The notes under the pieces: generated by a model | What the model was told of the DNA's origin: nothing | The model's input: only the letters and a program-made list of their open reading frames with translations | Database searches by the model: none | Source: a phage | Length of the DNA: 64,000 bases | Reading direction: 5' to 3' (one strand) | Assembly: GCA_020241125.1 (NCBI GenBank) | Contig: GCA_020241125.1_4708.1 | Program-made: the position numbers and the translations under genes | Part shown: piece after piece, positions 8,510 through 62,742 of the stretch | How positions within the stretch are numbered: the first letter of the stretch is position 1 | Layout of the letters: the number at the start of each line of letters is the position of its first letter

Positions 8510-9394
8510 TCAATAACGACCGTAGCGTTCCTCGAGCCGTTTTGGTTTTCTCAGAAGGCTATCTTTAAGTGGTACGACGTCGATATCAACACTCTCTGAG
8601 TAATAGCCGTTAGAACTACCATACCAACGGATAACAACACAACCCTTTGCAGTACGGATATGGTAAAATGTCCATTGTATACGTTCGCTGTAATAACCGT
8701 AGTTATCGGTTCTTTCCTCGGTTCTTTCTTCAGCACTGAGTATCTTTTCACCGATGATATCATTAATATCGCCGTCAATGTCTTCAAGATACACCTCTTC
8801 GCAGCAATCCTGCTGATGACAGAATTCGACAACGTTTCCATCACCACGATAGAAAAGAAGGGCGATACCGTTTCGTAATTGCTCGCTCGTTACATCAGAC
8901 ACACAATGCAAACTTTTATCGTCGGTAATCACCAAGACGTTGTTGATTACATGTCCGGCAAGCGCTCCGATCTTATTTACCGTGATAATCGGACGAACCG
9001 GTTCAGATTGAACGATAGGAATACGGACACAACCAATTAAAGCCATCCGTCCTTTCTTTGGTCTAACCGCAAGATACGGTGATTTTCTTGGGTGGTTATG
9101 TAGTCGTATTTCTACTTCGTTGAATTTAATCCCGTATGAACACAGAAAATAATTGAATAGTTTACGGAATTCCTCGGTTGCTTCTTGCAACGTGATGTTA
9201 TTTACTGTGAGTTTATGTCCCCTGAACACCCGGGTTAGATCGATAACATCCAGCGTTTTGAAATATATTTCCGTAAGGGGATGACCTGTGTATTCCAGGC
9301 AAGTAATTGTTCTTTGAACCACGATTTTAGGTTGTGCACCTTTAAAACGTTTCAGGTATTTAACACGATAGCGTGTATGATCTGATGTTAACAT
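8510..9394 (-). CDS. hypothetical protein (~294 aa; start moved to internal ATG with GGAGAGGAG RBS)
   Basis: ORF track 8510..9493; the longer N-terminus would overlap a terminator hairpin. Confidence 0.5.
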   Translation of the reverse strand: MLTSDHTRYRVKYLKRFKGAQPKIVVQRTITCLEYTGHPLTEIYFKTLDVIDLTRVFRGHKLTVNNITLQEATEEFRKLFNYFLCSYGIKFNEVEIRLHNHPRKSPYLAVRPKKGRMALIGCVRIPIVQSEPVRPIITVNKIGALAGHVINNVLVITDDKSLHCVSDVTSEQLRNGIALLFYRGDGNVVEFCHQQDCCEEVYLEDIDGDINDIIGEKILSAEERTEERTDNYGYYSERIQWTFYHIRTAKGCVVIRWYGSSNGYYSESVDIDVVPLKDSLLRKPKRLEERYGRY

Positions 9395-9467
9395 TTTAAT
9401 CTCCTCTCCCGACTTCAGAGAATTCTTAAAATCCGTTAGTTTTGATAGATAGGGTAAGACGGCATAA

Positions 9468-9490
9468 AAGCATCCCATTACGGGATGCTT
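9468..9490 (-). terminator. hairpin (AAGCATCCC/GGGATGCTT) with UUUUAUGCCG tail in minus sense
   Basis: Inverted repeat directly after stop of 9502..10050. Confidence 0.5.
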
Positions 9491-9501
9491 CATTAATCAG
9501 C

Positions 9502-14806: not shown

Positions 14807-15763
14807 TTAATGCAAGACACGATCTGCTGGAATTATCGTGGCATTGCTGTCGGACAGATTCGTCGCTTTACGATCAGGACTGAATCGACGAGCGTTCTCT
14901 TCATGGTAGTTGACGGGGTTATCCTGTTTTAACAGTTCCATTGCCTCATCAAACGTTAGTTCCCGAAATCCTCTTGGATAGAGGAACAGGGGTTCATCAA
15001 CATCCAACCCTTTAACAAACCCGTGCGACAACCAGACGCTGCCATCAGCACTGTAAAGAACCGGCTCAACGTCATAATCCAAGACGTATTGATACCAATA
15101 ATTAAACAGTTGAGCAATCCACCGATTACGTAATAAGTAATCGATCATAACCGCACTGCGCACGCTGTGGCACCAGCCGATCTTACCATCGACTTTCTGC
15201 AACAACGTACCCTCATTTGCTTGATGAATAACCGCATTAAATAACCACGCGAGATCGGTTGCGAAAAGTGCGGCTTCTTGAATATCGCTAATGTAACGCA
15301 CGGGTATCGTCAGATGCGTGCGGTAATGCGACATCGCCTCTTCGTAGTTGTCTCCTTCGATGCAGAGAGTCCCGTTTGGTGACAGATGCCCCTGATTCAA
15401 CGACTGACCAATATAAAGATCAGCGATCGCGTTAATGTATTCGACGGTACCCAAGGTTAACTCAGACATAAAACAATCGACATCAACAGCCATCGATGTA
15501 CTGGAAACAAACGGATTGGTTGGGTGAGTTGTATTAGAGAAAATAATAGACCAAACCGCTTCATGTTTTTCATCCGATGGCAAAAACGAAATATGGCGTT
15601 CTGCGCTATTATCGACAACAAATACCTTTACGGTTTTCAAGCAGTTAGTACAAACATAGCACGTGTTCGGCAACGGCATATCCGAAAACATATCGTAACG
15701 AATCGATGCCAGCGAAATGTCATGTCCGCAATGAGGGCATGTCGTATCAATAAGCGTTTTCAT
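14807..15763 (-). CDS. hypothetical protein with N-terminal CxxC...CxxC motif (318 aa)
   Basis: CPHCGHD...CYVCTNC. Confidence 0.5.
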   Translation of the reverse strand: MKTLIDTTCPHCGHDISLASIRYDMFSDMPLPNTCYVCTNCLKTVKVFVVDNSAERHISFLPSDEKHEAVWSIIFSNTTHPTNPFVSSTSMAVDVDCFMSELTLGTVEYINAIADLYIGQSLNQGHLSPNGTLCIEGDNYEEAMSHYRTHLTIPVRYISDIQEAALFATDLAWLFNAVIHQANEGTLLQKVDGKIGWCHSVRSAVMIDYLLRNRWIAQLFNYWYQYVLDYDVEPVLYSADGSVWLSHGFVKGLDVDEPLFLYPRGFRELTFDEAMELLKQDNPVNYHEENARRFSPDRKATNLSDSNATIIPADRVLH

Positions 15764-16026
15764 TATTGAATTCCTTTTGATAAGAATAACTGAATATCGG
15801 TAAACTGTTCTTCAGGAACATCGTCAGCGGCCGTTAGAACCTTAGGACCGTGTTCATTGAGGTAAGCTTCCCGTAGACAATGATGACGTCGATTGGCTTC
15901 CTGGAACTCAGTGTCCGTCATGTAAACCAGCGTAAACTTCGAACGTTTATTCGGATTATATCTCTTATTACGTTTCTTTGGTTTCTTCGCCATAATAGCC
16001 TCGTGAAGGTGGATGGATACACCCAT
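15763..16026 (-). CDS. hypothetical small basic protein (87 aa)
   Basis: ORF track; Lys/Arg-rich N-terminus. Confidence 0.45.
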   Translation of the reverse strand: MGVSIHLHEAIMAKKPKKRNKRYNPNKRSKFTLVYMTDTEFQEANRRHHCLREAYLNEHGPKVLTAADDVPEEQFTDIQLFLSKGIQ

Positions 16027-19262: not shown

Positions 19263-19282
19263 TAAGTAATATAGCCGTGAAA
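19263..19282 (-). promoter_or_regulatory. conserved promoter-like motif, copy 1 (minus sense TTTCACGGCTATATTACTTA)
   Basis: One of four near-identical copies; TATATTAC core ~40 nt upstream of ATG at 19217. Confidence 0.5.
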
Positions 19283-21607: not shown

Positions 21608-23062
21608 ATGAAACTCAAACAAAGCTGGAAAGACGAACTTCTCGCGTTAGTAAACAGCAAAAACAGTTTACAACTGACATTAGACGATGTAAAATTTGAA
21701 CTAACGGCACCGGTAAGCGAAGTGCCTGGAACGGTCGTTGTTACAATCAAACCGAACGATAATAGTCGCTACTTTAACGAGCAGTCTCTGACCTACATCC
21801 GTCGAGACATCGCTAAAAACTTCACCGGGATCCCGTTACGGGTTATCGTTAAGCAAGATACCGCTGTAAGGGATATCATCAATACGATTGCTGAACGTTA
21901 CGGATTGGTATTTGACACAGCCGTCGACTTCCTCGAATCCGAGCTGAATAAACAAATTACGTTCGCAGACACCGGTATTAAAGACATTACGGTTCCGGTT
22001 GCAAACACGTCTTATGTTTGGGCGGGTAATCTTCAGTTCAATATTGCTAACGATACGTTAAGCTTGATTACTATCATCAAGAAAACCGATCTTACGAATC
22101 TGGTTTATCTGGATGGTGTTGAAGCTGACACATCTGGTTCGTTACTATTAGCAACCGCAGCACTTGTTAACGAACACGTAAATGAACCGATGGTTGAAAA
22201 CGAAGATATCGTTAATGAATTTATTAACGTTCTTAATACTCTAGCCAAATATGGTGACATAACCGGCGATGAATTAGATGCCGCCTTACAAGCGTACGAT
22301 GAAGCAGAAAACAGGAATAAAACCACGGTAATAACTCTTGGTGATATCCAGTGTGTTGCAACAGAAAAAGACGATTGGGAAATTGGACGTTTACGCGGTC
22401 AGATGGTTCTCGCGCTCAAATCCGATAAATACCCGGAGCCCGATAACACGTTCAGGTTGTTTACGAATGGTGGTGACGTATCGCTAACGTTAAACACAAT
22501 GAAAGATATAAGTATCGATTGGGGTGATGGGAATAAAGTAACGTTGGATGCTGAAGAAAGATACGCGCACCACACATACGCCGACAATAACCAGTACCAA
22601 ATCGAAATTGTGTCTCGTACGGACCCAGATGTGCTGCGACCAAATTATATTTCTGGGAGTGAGATAACCGAAGTAATTCACTGGGCTACTACTTCAACAA
22701 TAGCTCTGAATTTTGTTGGATGCGATAATTTAGCGACTGTTCCAGATGAGATCCCAACTTCGTGGACAACGTTGGACAGCATGTTTGAAAGTTGTACGAA
22801 TTTGAATGATCCGTCTATCTCTAACTGGAATACAAGTAACATCACATCAATGAATGGTATGTTCGGCGGATGCACTAAATTTAACCAACCTTTAGCTGCC
22901 TGGGATGTCAGCTCAGTAACTGACATTGGTGGTATGTTTAACGGATGCAACAGTTTTAACCAAGATTTAAGTGGGTGGCGATTACCGTCAGGAGTAACCC
23001 ACGACAATTACGATAGTGGTGCTTTCTCGTGGCAGACGGAACATAAACCGACGTTCCAGTAA
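21608..23062 (+). CDS. protein with C-terminal DUF285/BspA-type leucine-rich repeats (484 aa)
   Basis: C-terminal repeats NFVGCDNLATVPDEIPTSWTTLDSMFESCTNLNDPSISNWNTSNITSMNGMFGGCTKFNQPLAAWDVSSVTDIGGMFNGCNSFNQDLSGW match the FxxCxxF-NQDIS-xWDVSxVTxMxxMF pattern. Confidence 0.7.
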   Translation: MKLKQSWKDELLALVNSKNSLQLTLDDVKFELTAPVSEVPGTVVVTIKPNDNSRYFNEQSLTYIRRDIAKNFTGIPLRVIVKQDTAVRDIINTIAERYGLVFDTAVDFLESELNKQITFADTGIKDITVPVANTSYVWAGNLQFNIANDTLSLITIIKKTDLTNLVYLDGVEADTSGSLLLATAALVNEHVNEPMVENEDIVNEFINVLNTLAKYGDITGDELDAALQAYDEAENRNKTTVITLGDIQCVATEKDDWEIGRLRGQMVLALKSDKYPEPDNTFRLFTNGGDVSLTLNTMKDISIDWGDGNKVTLDAEERYAHHTYADNNQYQIEIVSRTDPDVLRPNYISGSEITEVIHWATTSTIALNFVGCDNLATVPDEIPTSWTTLDSMFESCTNLNDPSISNWNTSNITSMNGMFGGCTKFNQPLAAWDVSSVTDIGGMFNGCNSFNQDLSGWRLPSGVTHDNYDSGAFSWQTEHKPTFQ

Positions 23063-37257: not shown

Positions 37258-37280
37258 AAAGGTAATATAAGCGTGAATAA
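37258..37280 (-). promoter_or_regulatory. conserved promoter-like motif, copy 2 (minus sense TTATTCACGCTTATATTACCTTT)
   Basis: TATATTAC core ~58 nt upstream of ATG 37204. Confidence 0.5.
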
Positions 37281-42540: not shown

Positions 42541-42560
42541 TAAGTAATATAGCCGTGAAA
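42541..42560 (-). promoter_or_regulatory. conserved promoter-like motif, copy 3 (minus sense TTTCACGGCTATATTACTTA)
   Basis: Identical over 20 nt to copy 1; ~85 nt upstream of ATG 42450. Confidence 0.5.
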
Positions 42561-44346: not shown

Positions 44347-44696
44347 CACATATCTTCAGTATGAATCGCTACTTCATACCCGCAGCATTACCTGCAGCTC
44401 CTGGTGTTACCAGGACGGAGAGATCATCTCATCACCCACGAAGGGTGTTCCGCGCTACCCTCAGCGAATTCGAGGGACATGATCGTTGAACCTTCCACCG
44501 ATAATCGGTGGCTAGGCTGCTGATTAAACATTGTACGTTGGGGTGGCATCCTGGTTCAGGACTGTCGTTGAAGCCTCCCAACATCCACTCACTTATTTCC
44601 GCCTTATCGGCTCCCATAAGGGCAGAGTGGCTTTAGCCCGTCTCAGCAATTCACGGAATTCAAGCTCTTCCTTTCAGAAGGCAGGGCCTCATCTGA
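44347..44696 (-). other. putative self-splicing intron (group I-like, 350 nt, no ORF) interrupting the beta' gene
   Basis: Exon 1 frame ends ...KGYNA and exon 2 starts DFDGD, restoring the YNADFDGD motif; 5' exon ends in U and insert ends in G; insert carries GGUUCAACGAUCAUGUC and AAGAUAU near its 3' end (resembling group I R and S elements) and several stem-loops (CCUGGUAACACCAGG). Confidence 0.55.
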
Positions 44697-45947
44697 AGCA
44701 TTGTATCCCTTAAGGATCATCACGCTTAACCCGATGGTATTATCCTGCGGATCGCGTTTAACCTTGGTGATTTCAAGACATTGGTTACTGCTTCGGTCAA
44801 GTGATGGGTTTCGAACAAAACCGCACACAATCCCATCGAACGGTGTATCAGCAATAAGCTCATCGTGCAGCTCACTCATCATCGGATGATAATTACGGAC
44901 ATGTTCCGCAACGAACGCACGTGCTGCTCTCGGTGAATAACCACGATGGAATAACTTGGATTGGATATGTTCTTTATTGGTTAAAGTAAATGGTGCGTAT
45001 GGGAAATGCAGATGATAATAACGATGGTTCGCTGTTATCGAACTGATTACAGTACGCGTGGTGAATGGATGTAATGTACCTAATATGTTTTTACGTGTGA
45101 TACCTTTCTTCTTACCGATGAACTCATCGAAAATCGCCGCATGGTATTGCAGTAGCTTCAATTGCACTTTCGCCATCCAGTTTTCTTTCTTTCTGGCGCT
45201 CAAAGGTGTTGTTGGGTGATAGATACTATTCAACGTACCGATAGCATCGATCGCACCTTCCATTTTGCTATCCGCATAACGACCGGTTGGCGTATTCTCG
45301 ATAACGAACATCATGGCCGCAGGAAAGCTGATATACTGACTGAAGAACTTATCACGATGGATACGGATGAATTCTCGTAGCGTATCAACTTTCTCCGTGT
45401 TCTTCGGTCCGCGTAACGTCGGTCCTTTATACAAGATCTCCATGATGCGATCGAAGTTCTGTATAAAACTATTTACACCGCGACGTATCCCGAATACATC
45501 GAATTGCTGCTCCAGATAGTTCTTGAGTTCGATGGGTCGTTTTACATTTGGACGGTAACTGGCATCAATGAGCCACGTCATCGTTTCAAAGCTTTTGATA
45601 TTCAACTCGCTTGCCAGCACGAGATGGACCAACGGGTTAATGAACGCATCAATTCCTTCAGGAACACGCGCCCAAACCGTCGAACGAATCTCTTGTTCTG
45701 CTGGATAGGTTACAACCGTTTTACAGTTCGGACACACCGTGCCGAGCAGCTCACCACGATTGTAGAAACCACAACCACATTGTGGCGTGATATCCAACGT
45801 ATCGCTGGAGTAAACACGGGTGATAAAACTGTTTAATTTCTTCTTCTCTTCGACGACTTTTGTATCGTAATCATTCAACAAAATCGGCGTGAAAGGAAGT
45901 TCTGCGAGCTGTCTATCGAAACTCACGATATCGAGCATGATGGCCAT
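44697..45947 (-). CDS. RNA polymerase beta'-like N-terminal subunit, exon 1 (417 aa to the GYNA junction)
   Basis: N-terminal zinc finger CGCGFYNRGELLGTVCPNCKTVV (cf beta' CxC...CxxC); TAGGAG RBS; unspliced frame continues 17 codons to a stop. Confidence 0.65.
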
Positions 45948-48004: not shown

Positions 48005-48024
48005 TAGGTAATATAACCCTGAAA
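48005..48024 (-). promoter_or_regulatory. conserved promoter-like motif, copy 4 (minus sense TTTCAGGGTTATATTACCTA)
   Basis: TATATTAC core ~73 nt upstream of ATG 47935. Confidence 0.5.
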
Positions 48025-49288: not shown

Positions 49289-49344
49289 CTCCCTCCTCCC
49301 TTGCATCCTCCCAACCCGTAAGGGAAGGGAGGATGGGGTGGTGG
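49289..49344. terminator. compound GC hairpin (TCCTCCC...GGGAGGA) between convergent genes
   Basis: Between stops of 48190..49284 (+) and 49351..51504 (-). Confidence 0.45.
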
Positions 49345-49350
49345 GTTATG

Positions 49351-59003: not shown

Positions 59004-59828
59004 TTAACTATCGCTTTCTGACGTATCGACGTAGTTGAAAATACGATCCCGTAAACACTCGTAACGAGGCAACGCGCTAAGAATGATCATCTTCAACTGC
59101 ATCGCGATCGATACACGTTCTTCATTCGATGCATCGTCTCCCCATTTACCCGGCTTAACCTGAATGGGTTCGTGCGGATCCTGCGGGAATATAAAACTTA
59201 ACAACAGATAATCTGTGCGGAACTCCCACACTTCTCGACCGTCGTTATCGGTTTCCTTACGCAACGTGAAGAGTTGACGTTCGGTGGTTGGATCCAACAT
59301 CAGCGGTCGGCCACGAACAATCTCCAGTTTACGTGGGCTGACGAACGTCGTACGTTCAGGAAGGTATTTTTCAACATCATCCGTATCCAACAAGAACAAA
59401 ATGATGTCGTCGAAATACTTCGGTGCGTACGTGTGTATCGGTTCACCGTCGCTATACGAAGAGATCTCTTGAAGTATTGGTGTCTTACACGAAAAGTTCT
59501 GGCATGAGCCGCGGGTGATCGGTAAGGTGGTCCATTGATGTTCTGTAGACAATTCAACAGGCACTAACGGATAGTCATCAATGAAAACCACACACGTTGT
59601 ACTAATGGGTATTCTTCCATCATTACCGGGTTCAAAAACCAAACGTATCTTACCGGTAATCAACGCCATCTCATCTGGCATTAAATGGCTTGCTGAACGG
59701 GCAAGTCTGAAACCGCTCGCCTGTTTATAAGGTTCGGGTTTATAGCCACGGACAATAAGAGACACATCCGCAAGTTCAACGCTCACGAATGCATCTTTGA
59801 TGTCTTCATTGTTCGTCGTTAACGTCAT
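59004..59828 (-). CDS. hypothetical protein (274 aa)
   Basis: ORF track. Confidence 0.55.
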   Translation of the reverse strand: MTLTTNNEDIKDAFVSVELADVSLIVRGYKPEPYKQASGFRLARSASHLMPDEMALITGKIRLVFEPGNDGRIPISTTCVVFIDDYPLVPVELSTEHQWTTLPITRGSCQNFSCKTPILQEISSYSDGEPIHTYAPKYFDDIILFLLDTDDVEKYLPERTTFVSPRKLEIVRGRPLMLDPTTERQLFTLRKETDNDGREVWEFRTDYLLLSFIFPQDPHEPIQVKPGKWGDDASNEERVSIAMQLKMIILSALPRYECLRDRIFNYVDTSESDS

Positions 59829-60843
59829 TGTTCATTTTCTCCATTGCAACGAATCGTTCAAGCTCGCGTAATAAACGCTCTTTTAACGCAGGATCAACTT
59901 CCGGAGCATGTTTATCACGATACCACTCTGTCCCGTTGTATTGCAGGCTAACATGCCATGTTCCTAACGGGCTTTCCTCTGCAGCGGCGATGAAATTCTT
60001 AACGCCGGTTTTGGTAGGATACTCCATGATAGGAATAGCCTGCTTCAGATCCATTACGGTAAGATCCTGGAAGTTATAATCCAGGAGCGTTAATGCACGT
60101 TTGTCGCGTAACAGTAACCCGCAATCCAAGATAGTGAAATCGATACCCCAAAATTGTAGCTTACCGCCCGTACTGATAGGAATATGACCGCGATAAACCG
60201 CGAGATAAATCTCACCTTTATCGGTTTCTTTATTGTATCCTGCGATGAATGCTGCGGTAATTAACGGCTGATCGCCTTTCGCAAAGAAAACAGGATGCGT
60301 ACGATAAAGCCAATCATTACGGATTAAATCGGATACCTGACCTAAACGTGCCGTGGGCACCATTGTCGATCCTAAGTCACTATTACTAACTTCGAATTGG
60401 TAATATTCAAACAGAACACCGTCGACTTCTTCTTTAGCGTATGGTTCACGATCCGGATTAGCGAGTATATAACGCAACTTATTATCGATTTCGGCTACGC
60501 GTTCCTCATGGGTATCCATAAGGCTAGTGACGACGAAAGCAGCCAGATTACGTACGCTAAGGAACACGTCGTCTTTCTCCTGGTCGCTTAGTCCTTCTTC
60601 ATCTGCTAGCGTTGTCCAATGCAGTGGTCCCTCCACCATTTTCAACCATTTGTCTTCACGCTCTGGGTAAACAAAGGGCTTGTGTACAGGAACGCTGGTA
60701 TGCTGCACACGCAATAGTAACGAACAAGGGGATTGCATTATCGACTCCCATGGCACTATACCACTCGTGACAGCGATGACGTGACGATTAAGAACAAGAG
60801 AAGCTGAATAAGTAATGTTATCTAATCCTGGTAATTGATCCAT
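59806..60843 (-). CDS. hypothetical protein (345 aa)
   Basis: ORF track; AT-rich 300-bp region upstream. Confidence 0.55.
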   Translation of the reverse strand: MDQLPGLDNITYSASLVLNRHVIAVTSGIVPWESIMQSPCSLLLRVQHTSVPVHKPFVYPEREDKWLKMVEGPLHWTTLADEEGLSDQEKDDVFLSVRNLAAFVVTSLMDTHEERVAEIDNKLRYILANPDREPYAKEEVDGVLFEYYQFEVSNSDLGSTMVPTARLGQVSDLIRNDWLYRTHPVFFAKGDQPLITAAFIAGYNKETDKGEIYLAVYRGHIPISTGGKLQFWGIDFTILDCGLLLRDKRALTLLDYNFQDLTVMDLKQAIPIMEYPTKTGVKNFIAAAEESPLGTWHVSLQYNGTEWYRDKHAPEVDPALKERLLRELERFVAMEKMNNDVNDEQ

Positions 60844-61098
60844 GATAGAAATCCTTAGTATGTTTGATATGTTGTTTAATTAACATATTAAGTTTAAAAG
60901 AGGTTATGTTTTACGTATTGTTAATAACGTATTCTTATCTCTATTAAGTTATGTTCTATCTAAAGATAGTAAACAGATATAATGCTCCCCACCTCCCCAT
61001 TCTCCCAAGTAATACTGGCCTACCGGCCCTCTCCTTTTTAAGGGAGAGAGTAAGCATTCAGTATTGCTCAAATGAATAAGCAAAACAGTATAAACTTA

Positions 61099-61122
61099 CC
61101 GTCTCGAGATAACTCGAGACGG
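61099..61122 (-). terminator. perfect palindromic hairpin CCGTCTCGAG-ATAA-CTCGAGACGG with U-rich tail in minus sense
   Basis: 30 nt after stop of 61152..61505. Confidence 0.6.
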
Positions 61123-61151
61123 CGTAGTAGTATCTGTTTATCTCTTTTATG

Positions 61152-61505
61152 CTAACAGCCTATTTCTGCATGAACCTTTAACGATTCGAATACATCTTGC
61201 TTCTTTATCATCGTCTTGTATAAACGTGATTGAGCAATGATCTTTATCCATTGTTGTGGATCGCGTAAATTCACATTTTCAAAACGGGGTGGGGTATTAT
61301 CTCCGTCGAGTCGGATATACCCTAAGAGCAATCCTTCATGGTCTCCTCGACGGATTTCGATATGCGGTTTGAGGAAGACATGATTGTCTGGTGGATACCA
61401 GCTTACGGTGTAGTAATGGTTTCCTGAAACAACGAATTCGTGAACGGCTTTTGTCTCATCGTCAATGACCGCATTTACGCTGGGAATCATTAATTTTTGA
61501 AGCAT
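61152..61505 (-). CDS. hypothetical protein (117 aa)
   Basis: ORF track. Confidence 0.5.
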   Translation of the reverse strand: MLQKLMIPSVNAVIDDETKAVHEFVVSGNHYYTVSWYPPDNHVFLKPHIEIRRGDHEGLLLGYIRLDGDNTPPRFENVNLRDPQQWIKIIAQSRLYKTMIKKQDVFESLKVHAEIGC

Positions 61506-62637: not shown

Positions 62638-62742
62638 TGCATTGCCTTCCGCGAGTGTAATCAGGAAGGTAATGTAGGTTTATTTTAATCTCCATTTCGC
62701 GATGATATGACAGTCTTTATTACGTTTACCATCTGAGGGAGC

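Follow-up and report, generated by a model that had tools for sequence, protein, structure and literature searches.

Phages of the phiKZ type transcribe their genomes without the host RNA polymerase (RNAP) (PMC4666361), and the late promoters recognized by the non-virion RNA polymerase (nvRNAP) of phiKZ consist of the tetranucleotide TATG, in which the G is nucleotide +1 (PMC4666361, PMC12809450). Every substitution within this tetranucleotide cripples transcription, and the promoters have no other consensus (PMC4666361). In a structure from 2026, a beta-like subunit reads TATG in non-template DNA that is already separated, and the propensity of the DNA to open has been proposed to provide the remaining specificity of nvRNAP (PMC12809450). 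The leaders of phiKZ transcripts are typically 31-40 nt long (PMC8244752). In nucleus-forming jumbo phages beyond phiKZ and 201phi2-1, promoter use is largely unmapped. Here, we analyse a non-coding gap (positions 60844-61151) in a 64,000-nucleotide stretch of phage DNA (contig GCA_020241125.1_4708.1), which we refer to in its entirety as the window. The gap lies between homologues of genes gp208 and gp207 of Escherichia phage vB_EcoM_Goslar, and contains the DNA richest in adenine and thymine (AT) of the window. On balance, this gap is probably an operon boundary that comprises a terminator, followed by an nvRNAP-type (TATG) promoter and leader for gp207-gp203.

Goslar, a nucleus-forming jumbo phage that infects E. 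coli, has a genome of 237,307 bp. The whole window is collinear with roughly 125.5-189.0 kb of this genome, and the 3.7 kb around the gap are 97.1% identical to Goslar (MK327938.1) over their full length. We obtained a gene map by lifting the Goslar proteins over onto the window with tblastn. In this map, the gap is 308 bp long, both neighbouring genes are on the minus strand, and it separates two gene runs on that strand: the tightly packed run gp210-gp209-gp208, an operon of which gp208 is the final gene, and gp207-gp203. We compared the locus at three levels of divergence. The close genomes (Goslar, L009, L010 and L026-L029) have flanks that are 93-100% identical, the flanking genes of the L011/L012/L030 lineage are 75-91% identical, and in the distant, syntenic lineage L017-L021 the gp207 homologue is only 37% identical.

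Anatomy and conservation of the gp208-gp207 gap

The gap contains the following features, where the sense strand is the minus strand.

61099-61122, minus strand: terminator-type hairpin CCGTCTCGAG-TTAT-CTCGAGACGG, an inverted repeat with a perfect 10-bp stem
61088-61094, minus strand: TTTATAC, just past the hairpin; a variant of Goslar TTTATGC that is not conserved in L011
60976-61084, minus strand: block A, a conserved 109-nt element with a long imperfect hairpin at 60996-61080 (85 nt)
60985-61009, minus strand: G-rich tract CTTGGGAGAATGGGGAGGTGGGGAG (sense strand), with a G4Hunter score of 1.84, the third highest in the window
60978-60983, plus strand: TATAAT hexamer; for spacers of 16-18, no -35 position matches at more than 2 of 6 bases
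60956-60969, both strands: 14-bp palindrome CTATCTTTAGATAG (CTATCT-TT-AGATAG, written on the sense strand)
60918-60949, both strands: variable middle of the AT-rich stretch, 66% identical to L011
60859-60955, plus strand: four antisense-strand copies of TATGTT, which include the TTATGTT repeats
60844-60984, both strands: AT-rich stretch, with a guanine-plus-cytosine (GC) content of 0.227 (22.7%)
60844-60917, minus strand: block B, which hardly varies among ten Goslar-like sequences and is the candidate promoter and 5' leader of gp207; it holds ACATAACCT (60901-60909), TATG (60884-60887), TTAAACAA (60872-60879) and the Shine-Dalgarno sequence AAGGA (60852-60856)
60884-60887, minus strand: sense-strand TATG, candidate nvRNAP start, conserved in all lineages

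Block B carries the candidate promoter. Its TATG is located 41 nt before the gp207 ATG in the window and in Goslar-like genomes, and 45 nt before it in L017; both distances fall within the short leader range (about 30-50 nt) of an nvRNAP late promoter. The L017 locus keeps TATG, followed by ATTWAAACAA 3-4 nt later, although the surrounding sequence is unalignable. The G of TATG is the complement of C60884, so that a start at this nucleotide would give a 5' untranslated region (UTR) of 41 nt. Elsewhere in Goslar, TATG is found upstream of the start codons of the capsid (major capsid protein, MCP) gene (52 nt), the sheath gene (38 nt), gp248 (36 nt) and gp222 (36 nt).

On the other side of the gap, the hairpin at 61099-61122 is a stable, G+C-containing stem-loop that follows the gp208 stop codon. 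Its stem is preserved by a compensatory change from C:G to U:A, affecting both arms, in L027 and L029, and variation in Goslar, L009, L010 and L026 is confined to the loop. The minus strand continues from the hairpin into TAAGTTTATAC, and the tail UAAGUUUAUACUGUUUUG is U-rich but interrupted; a terminator scan returned only a shifted, weaker hairpin at this site. The L011/L030 lineage is missing the hairpin, and L017 has a different one, followed by TTCTTATGC, at the corresponding place. The heptamer TTTATAC at 61088-61094 may serve as a U-tract, as a secondary start site, or as both. In Goslar, a hairpin with TTTATGC is present upstream of gp156, gp161, gp169, gp191 and gp199, and a hairpin with TTATAC at gp188. 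Since TTTATGC directly follows such hairpins, the U-rich tail and the TATG start motif appear to be fused into one terminator-promoter unit. More generally, intergenic sequence is dominated by CCTCCC/GGGAGG hairpin arms, and in the gaps of the window these hairpins are typically followed directly by TTTATGC (for example at gp156, gp161, gp169, gp183, gp191 and gp199).

An earlier note, made from the sequence alone, had described a marked AT-richness over about 140 bp within 60844-61098. This observation holds with one correction: the gap extends to 61151, and it is only 60844-60984 that is AT-rich, the remainder (60985-61151) being structured and of ordinary GC content (0.437). At 0.221, the GC content of 60843-60982 is the lowest of any 140-bp segment in the window (mean 0.455, standard deviation 0.046, second-lowest value 0.30), which is about five standard deviations low and well beyond chance. 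Calculated nearest-neighbour stability gives a similar picture, in that no other 100 bp of the window is as weak as 60874-60973 (-106.9 kcal/mol, where the mean is -136.6 and the standard deviation 6.2). The counterpart in Goslar is the least stable 100-bp duplex genome-wide (-107 kcal/mol, against a mean of -138 and a standard deviation of 6). By GC content, Goslar has one other comparable island, at 15.2 kb, in an 854-bp non-coding gap. This gp022/gp021 gap (Goslar 14972-15825, L004), whose AT-rich island at 15189-15328 has a GC content of 0.22, also carries several hairpins, ACATAACCT and an early-class promoter at 15067. Although ACATAACCT is thus common to both Goslar islands, we did not retain it as a motif shared by AT-rich islands, as it has only a handful of intergenic instances. 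Nine of the 10 most AT-rich 140-bp segments of Goslar fall in gaps upstream of genes, several of them with early-class promoters, so low GC content generally marks promoter regions in this genome.

The earlier note had proposed a comparison with relatives, and this comparison separates what is kept at the locus from what is not. In every lineage, a local GC minimum occupies the last 100-140 bp before the gp207-like ATG (z-scores of -3.9 to -5.4). The AT-rich spacer can be replaced in its middle: L011 and L030 have 58 nt of AT-rich sequence inserted after window position 60918, and most AACATA/TATGTT copies are gone from them; the spacer of L017 is shorter, unalignable and has none. As the GC minimum stays while the sequence and length of the spacer vary, the conserved properties are position, composition, the G-rich tract and the TATG block, and the short repeats are not among them. 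The arms of the palindrome at 60956-60969 are invariant in ten Goslar-like sequences (in L027 the TT centre is AA), but the palindrome is not recognisable in L017. Still recognisable there are the G-rich tract, GGCCGTAGGC and ATTTGAG.

Block A has a mean column identity of 96% across six Goslar-like lineages. Compared with L011 it is 89-94% identical, which equals or exceeds the best neighbouring gene, against 75-91% for the flanking genes. The 3' arm of its long hairpin lies partly in CTTGGGAGAATGGGGAGGTGGGGAG, and the tract extends past the stem. Relatives preserve the runs of G but differ in the base that separates GGGG from GG, which can be A, T or C; L017 keeps CTTGGGAATGGGAGGCGGGAG, the strongest sense-strand G-rich site of its locus. 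This 109-nt element could be an accessory that reinforces termination, insulates the two operons, or functions as an RNA element on read-through. The highest G4Hunter score of the window belongs to another site, at 49317-49346 in the convergent gp190/gp191 gap, which has canonical four-run G-quadruplex motifs on both strands. Searches of Goslar and the window with blastn-short and a covariance model revealed no duplicate of any segment of the gap, and the covariance model likewise found block A to be single-copy in both. Two small open reading frames (ORFs) overlapping block A, one of 44 aa with a TTG start on the minus strand (60949-61083) and one of 42 aa on the plus strand (60951-61079), were rejected as genes, as neither has a ribosome-binding site. 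By an alignment read by eye, the substitutions were about 4 synonymous to 7 non-synonymous, and the frame stops early in L017. A tiny leader peptide after GGAGG was also discarded, its Shine-Dalgarno sequence being lost in L011, L027 and L030.

A conserved TATG in easily opened DNA fits the phiKZ model, and our preferred interpretation of the gap is therefore a terminator with an nvRNAP-type promoter downstream of it. Transcripts of gp210-gp208 would end at the hairpin at 61099-61122, and the phage nvRNAP would start the gp207-gp203 operon at the sense-strand TATG at 60884-60887, producing a 41-nt leader with the Shine-Dalgarno sequence AAGGA. The extreme AT-richness around TATG would allow easy strand opening, as in the phiKZ model. 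The sequences show the anatomy and composition of the gap, its conservation in three lineages and its lack of early and sigma-70 promoters, whereas this start site, this polymerase and this role of melting are inferred. However, several points weigh against this interpretation. Since TATG is short, and is expected about once per strand per 140 bp at such a composition, its presence alone means little. In addition, TATG is only modestly enriched 30-60 nt upstream of Goslar late genes (4 of the 13 inspected). Other candidate late promoters need no 140-bp AT tract, so the extreme composition is not fully explained, and by the same logic the four antisense TATGTT copies could fire in the opposite direction. 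The model thus leaves unexplained both the length of the AT tract and the role of the conserved G-rich element.

Promoter classes and short repeats

The earlier note had pointed out that the gap lacks the TATATTAC motif, and had suggested a different promoter class, a host-RNAP promoter, or an unwinding or origin element. Absence of the motif is borne out by our analysis. The window has four copies of TATATTAC, a count at the level of chance; all four lie between genes, are oriented along the minus strand and precede genes of that strand, one of which is chmA (gp189).

19266-19273, minus strand: early-class promoter motif upstream of gp159
37262-37269, minus strand: early-class promoter motif upstream of gp175
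42544-42551, minus strand: early-class promoter motif upstream of gp182
48008-48015, minus strand: early-class promoter motif upstream of chmA (gp189)

The sites of this class share a 30-nt consensus, in which an A-rich tract is followed by TTTCACGrCTAyATTACyTAnnTGA, and there are 12 strong copies in Goslar. Expression of chmA is seen at 5 min, and the mapped start site lies at most 91 nt from the ATG; the TATATTAC class is therefore very probably the early promoter of the virion RNAP and would correspond to the conserved AT-rich early motif of phiKZ. In a weight matrix derived from the 12 sites of Goslar, the four true sites of the window score 45-55 bits, and nothing in the gap exceeds -21 bits. 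Weaker variants of the early class are present at 62676 (gp210) and 28112 (gp165). GGCCAGTATTACTTGGGAG (61005-61023), which partially resembles an early promoter, fails the weight matrix. TTTTAAC, a candidate for a second promoter class because of its apparent enrichment in the gaps of the window, was also rejected: genome-wide it is equally frequent on the two strands (35 copies on each) and mostly intragenic. A pattern similar to phiKZ middle promoters (WWACC, 11-17 nt, TATG) had many matches, mostly in coding sequence, and defines no class; it is a resemblance only.

Of the options raised in the earlier note, a different promoter class is the best supported, in view of the conserved TATG and the absence of the early class, with the start site and polymerase predicted from phiKZ. 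The short repeats that the note listed fared unevenly. TTATGTT is indeed repeated, with two plus-strand copies (60904 and 60949), as is TAAGTT, whose two plus-strand copies lie within an exact 9-mer, TATTAAGTT, at 60886 and 60942. ATATTA, on the other hand, occurs only once. The TATAAT hexamer noted at about 60977 is present at 60978-60983 on the plus strand.

Other roles considered for the gap

The conserved structure of block A raises the question of whether the whole gap is transcribed as a long gp207 leader (about 245 nt, or by read-through) that acts at the RNA level. Its hairpin would then be a processing, stability or anti-termination element, and the A/U-rich part a translation enhancer or ribonuclease target. 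On the sense strand, block A has a folding energy of -34.6 kcal/mol (z = -4.0) and the L011 version -38.2 kcal/mol (z = -3.6), and changes in the stems among relatives are of the wobble type, which is compatible with the structure; they do not include a true compensatory change. In L017, however, the long hairpin is not significant (z = +0.65) and the covariance model detects nothing. Searches with Rfam 15 gave no match in the whole window at gathering thresholds, and only chance-level hits in 60700-61300 at E up to 10; a scan for transfer RNAs and transfer-messenger RNAs found none. Because the L011 lineage lacks the simple terminator hairpin, read-through is likely there, and a long leader is plausible. 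A transcription start site has also been reported at most 91 nt upstream of the nvRNAP beta' gene (gp188), whose 92-nt upstream stretch holds a hairpin and then TTATAC, as in our gap, and phage 201phi2-1 is reported to make small RNAs from 5' UTRs (PMC11512511). No significant RNA structure was found in the AT-rich part (z = -1.1), which agrees with a long leader, but its middle tolerates the 58-nt insertion, which does not. Taking these points together, we regard a long leader as unlikely.

The instability of the AT-rich stretch invites a different explanation, namely that it serves a replication origin as DNA unwinding element, with an R-loop possibly providing the primer. In the latter case, a transcript over the G-rich tract would form a stable RNA:DNA hybrid, and the adjacent unstable duplex would open for replisome loading. 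R-loop priming at oriF/oriG of phage T4, ColE1 and mitochondrial CSBII resembles this proposal in principle, and origins of the T4 oriF/oriG and ColE1 type likewise place a very unstable duplex after a transcribed G-rich segment. However, the gap differs from them in having neither a defined upstream promoter nor sequence homology, and its layout also fits an ordinary terminator-promoter spacer. The duplex is extremely easy to melt, as expected of an unwinding element, and the compositional minimum is kept at the locus while the sequence drifts. Immediately upstream on the sense strand, the conserved tract of G runs is among the top G4Hunter sites in three lineages. We nevertheless think it quite unlikely that the AT-rich stretch is an origin, and the more specific idea that the G runs and the least stable duplex, held at the same locus across lineages, mark a transcription-primed (R-loop- or G-quadruplex-assisted) origin has a similarly small chance of being correct. 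The gap has no iterons or initiator boxes and no family of at least three regularly spaced repeats; of the TATGTT/AACATA copies, one is kept in L011 and none in L017. The cumulative GC skew has no inflection here, but declines steadily to a minimum at 215 kb, where gene orientation switches. None of the flanking genes has a recognisable replication function in Pfam, PHROG, PADLOC or the PDB, and the other AT-rich minima of Goslar coincide with promoters. Moreover, large phages often replicate mainly by recombination. If the origin explanation were true, this would be an origin for a nucleus-forming jumbo phage, and the reviews searched name none for chimalliviruses (PMC12908238, PMC13282480). 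The plus-strand repeats suggest yet another possibility, in which TATGTT copies start an antisense or small RNA that runs rightwards through the complement of block A to the hairpin at 61099-61122. TATGTT has four plus-strand copies in the AT-rich stretch (60859, 60868, 60905 and 60950) and one on the minus strand (60882-60887), together five of the 48 copies in the window. At least four plus-strand copies in 141 bp arose in only about 1e-4 of 20,000 mononucleotide shuffles, and the TATGTT/AACATA cluster is the densest in the Goslar genome. In addition, the hairpin can act on either strand because it is a perfect palindrome, and many antisense RNAs have been reported in phiKZ (cited in PMC11077065). 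The repeats exceed their chance frequency, yet they are not conserved: one of the four plus-strand copies is kept in L011, where the insertion adds another, and L017 keeps none. Since, furthermore, block A folds more weakly on the plus strand and no T-run follows the hairpin on that strand, such an RNA is very unlikely. We attach almost no weight to the least plausible proposal, in which the TATAAT hexamer at 60978 would form the core of a host sigma-70 promoter or of a region bound by host nucleoid proteins. A perfect TATAAT in AT-rich, probably curved DNA speaks for it. However, the hexamer has no -35 partner (2 of 6 matches at spacers of 16-18), is directed away from gp207, and is missing in L017. 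A scan of 60500-61500 on both strands for sigma-70-like promoters found 0 sites, against 2.0 expected by chance. Rifampicin does not block infection by phiKZ-type phages, whose genome is surrounded first by a vesicle and later by a protein shell (PMC4666361).

Genomic surroundings and known counterparts

The genes on either side of the gap, both hypothetical or unmatched, are as follows.

61152-61505, minus strand: gp208 homologue, 117 aa, hypothetical, 95.7% identical to the Goslar protein (tblastn)
59806-60843, minus strand: gp207 homologue, 345 aa, first gene of the tightly packed run gp207-gp203

Searches of Pfam, PHROG and PADLOC found no match for the gp208 homologue, and searches of these databases and the PDB found none for the gp207 homologue. 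In a search over 1.8 billion representatives, homologues of gp207 were confined to Goslar-like phages; one match, P0006 (E = 2e-5), was set aside, as it comes from a 2.7-Mb non-phage contig. The AlphaFold model of gp207 (predicted local distance difference test, pLDDT, 45) was unusable for a fold search. The N-terminal two-thirds of gp207 (especially 60250-60843) is a hot spot of divergence from L009 and L010, with 59-85% nucleotide identity against a baseline of 93-100%. The boundary of this divergence coincides exactly with the start codon, beside the almost invariant gap, a pattern in the alignments that suggests diversifying selection or cassette exchange.

We observed several other differences between the window and its relatives. 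At 44690-44697 (Goslar 168195-169660), the window is without a 1.47-kb Goslar block that lies beside the nvRNAP beta' gene (gp188) and consists of the HNH/NUMOD1 endonuclease gene gp186 and an annotated group I intron; no Rfam family of group I introns reaches its threshold anywhere in the window. Conversely, about 0.9 kb of the window (8510-9404) is an insert that Goslar lacks, and a 327-aa ORF (8510-9493, minus strand) lies in it. The gp161 homologue (21608-23056, plus strand) has 61% protein identity to Goslar, compared with 94-99% for its neighbours. Positions 1-660 have no match to Goslar and contain an 11-base C homopolymer (159-169). In L017, a gene for an I-TevI-like (NUMOD3) homing endonuclease (1768-2412) is located between the gp211-like and gp210-like genes.

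How nvRNAP chooses among many TATG sites is an open question, and this locus offers a natural test case for the melting-propensity proposal, as it combines a conserved TATG with the least stable DNA of the genome, and with an AT-richness that persists although the sequence drifts. It also supplies coordinates for mapping origins in chimalliviruses (Goslar 185.8 kb, plus the AT-rich island at 15.2 kb). If the gap is only an operon boundary, its value is modest: it annotates a terminator, a promoter candidate and a conserved non-coding element in Goslar-like genomes.

Among described systems, the early promoters of Goslar and phiKZ share with the gap an intergenic, minus-strand, A/T-rich setting, and ACATAACCT resembles their core TAYATTACYT. 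However, the full 42-nt motif is absent from the gap, and the spacing to any TG start is unfitting. ACATAACCT, centred about 22 nt upstream, also recalls the phiKZ middle motif AAanTTACc, a class that we did not find in Goslar. The spacers and 5'-UTR-derived small RNAs of 201phi2-1 and phiKZ (PMC11512511) are similar in that a conserved G/C-rich intergenic hairpin is followed by a promoter, and that a structured, conserved leader lies upstream of a gene. They differ from the element in the gap, which is single-copy, lies upstream of a gene restricted to Goslar-like phages, and has no demonstrated sequence relationship to them. The late promoters of phiKZ (for example P119L) have in common with the gap a non-template TATG at a typical leader distance, the lack of an upstream consensus, and an easily opened context, as has been proposed for the choice of sites by nvRNAP (PMC4666361, PMC12809450). 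They differ in that the start site in the gap is a predicted one. In addition, the AT tract of the gap is far longer and more extreme than those of other candidates in the same genome, and a conserved TTAAACAA lies just downstream of its TATG. The gap is thus a new, previously unannotated instance of an already known type of element.

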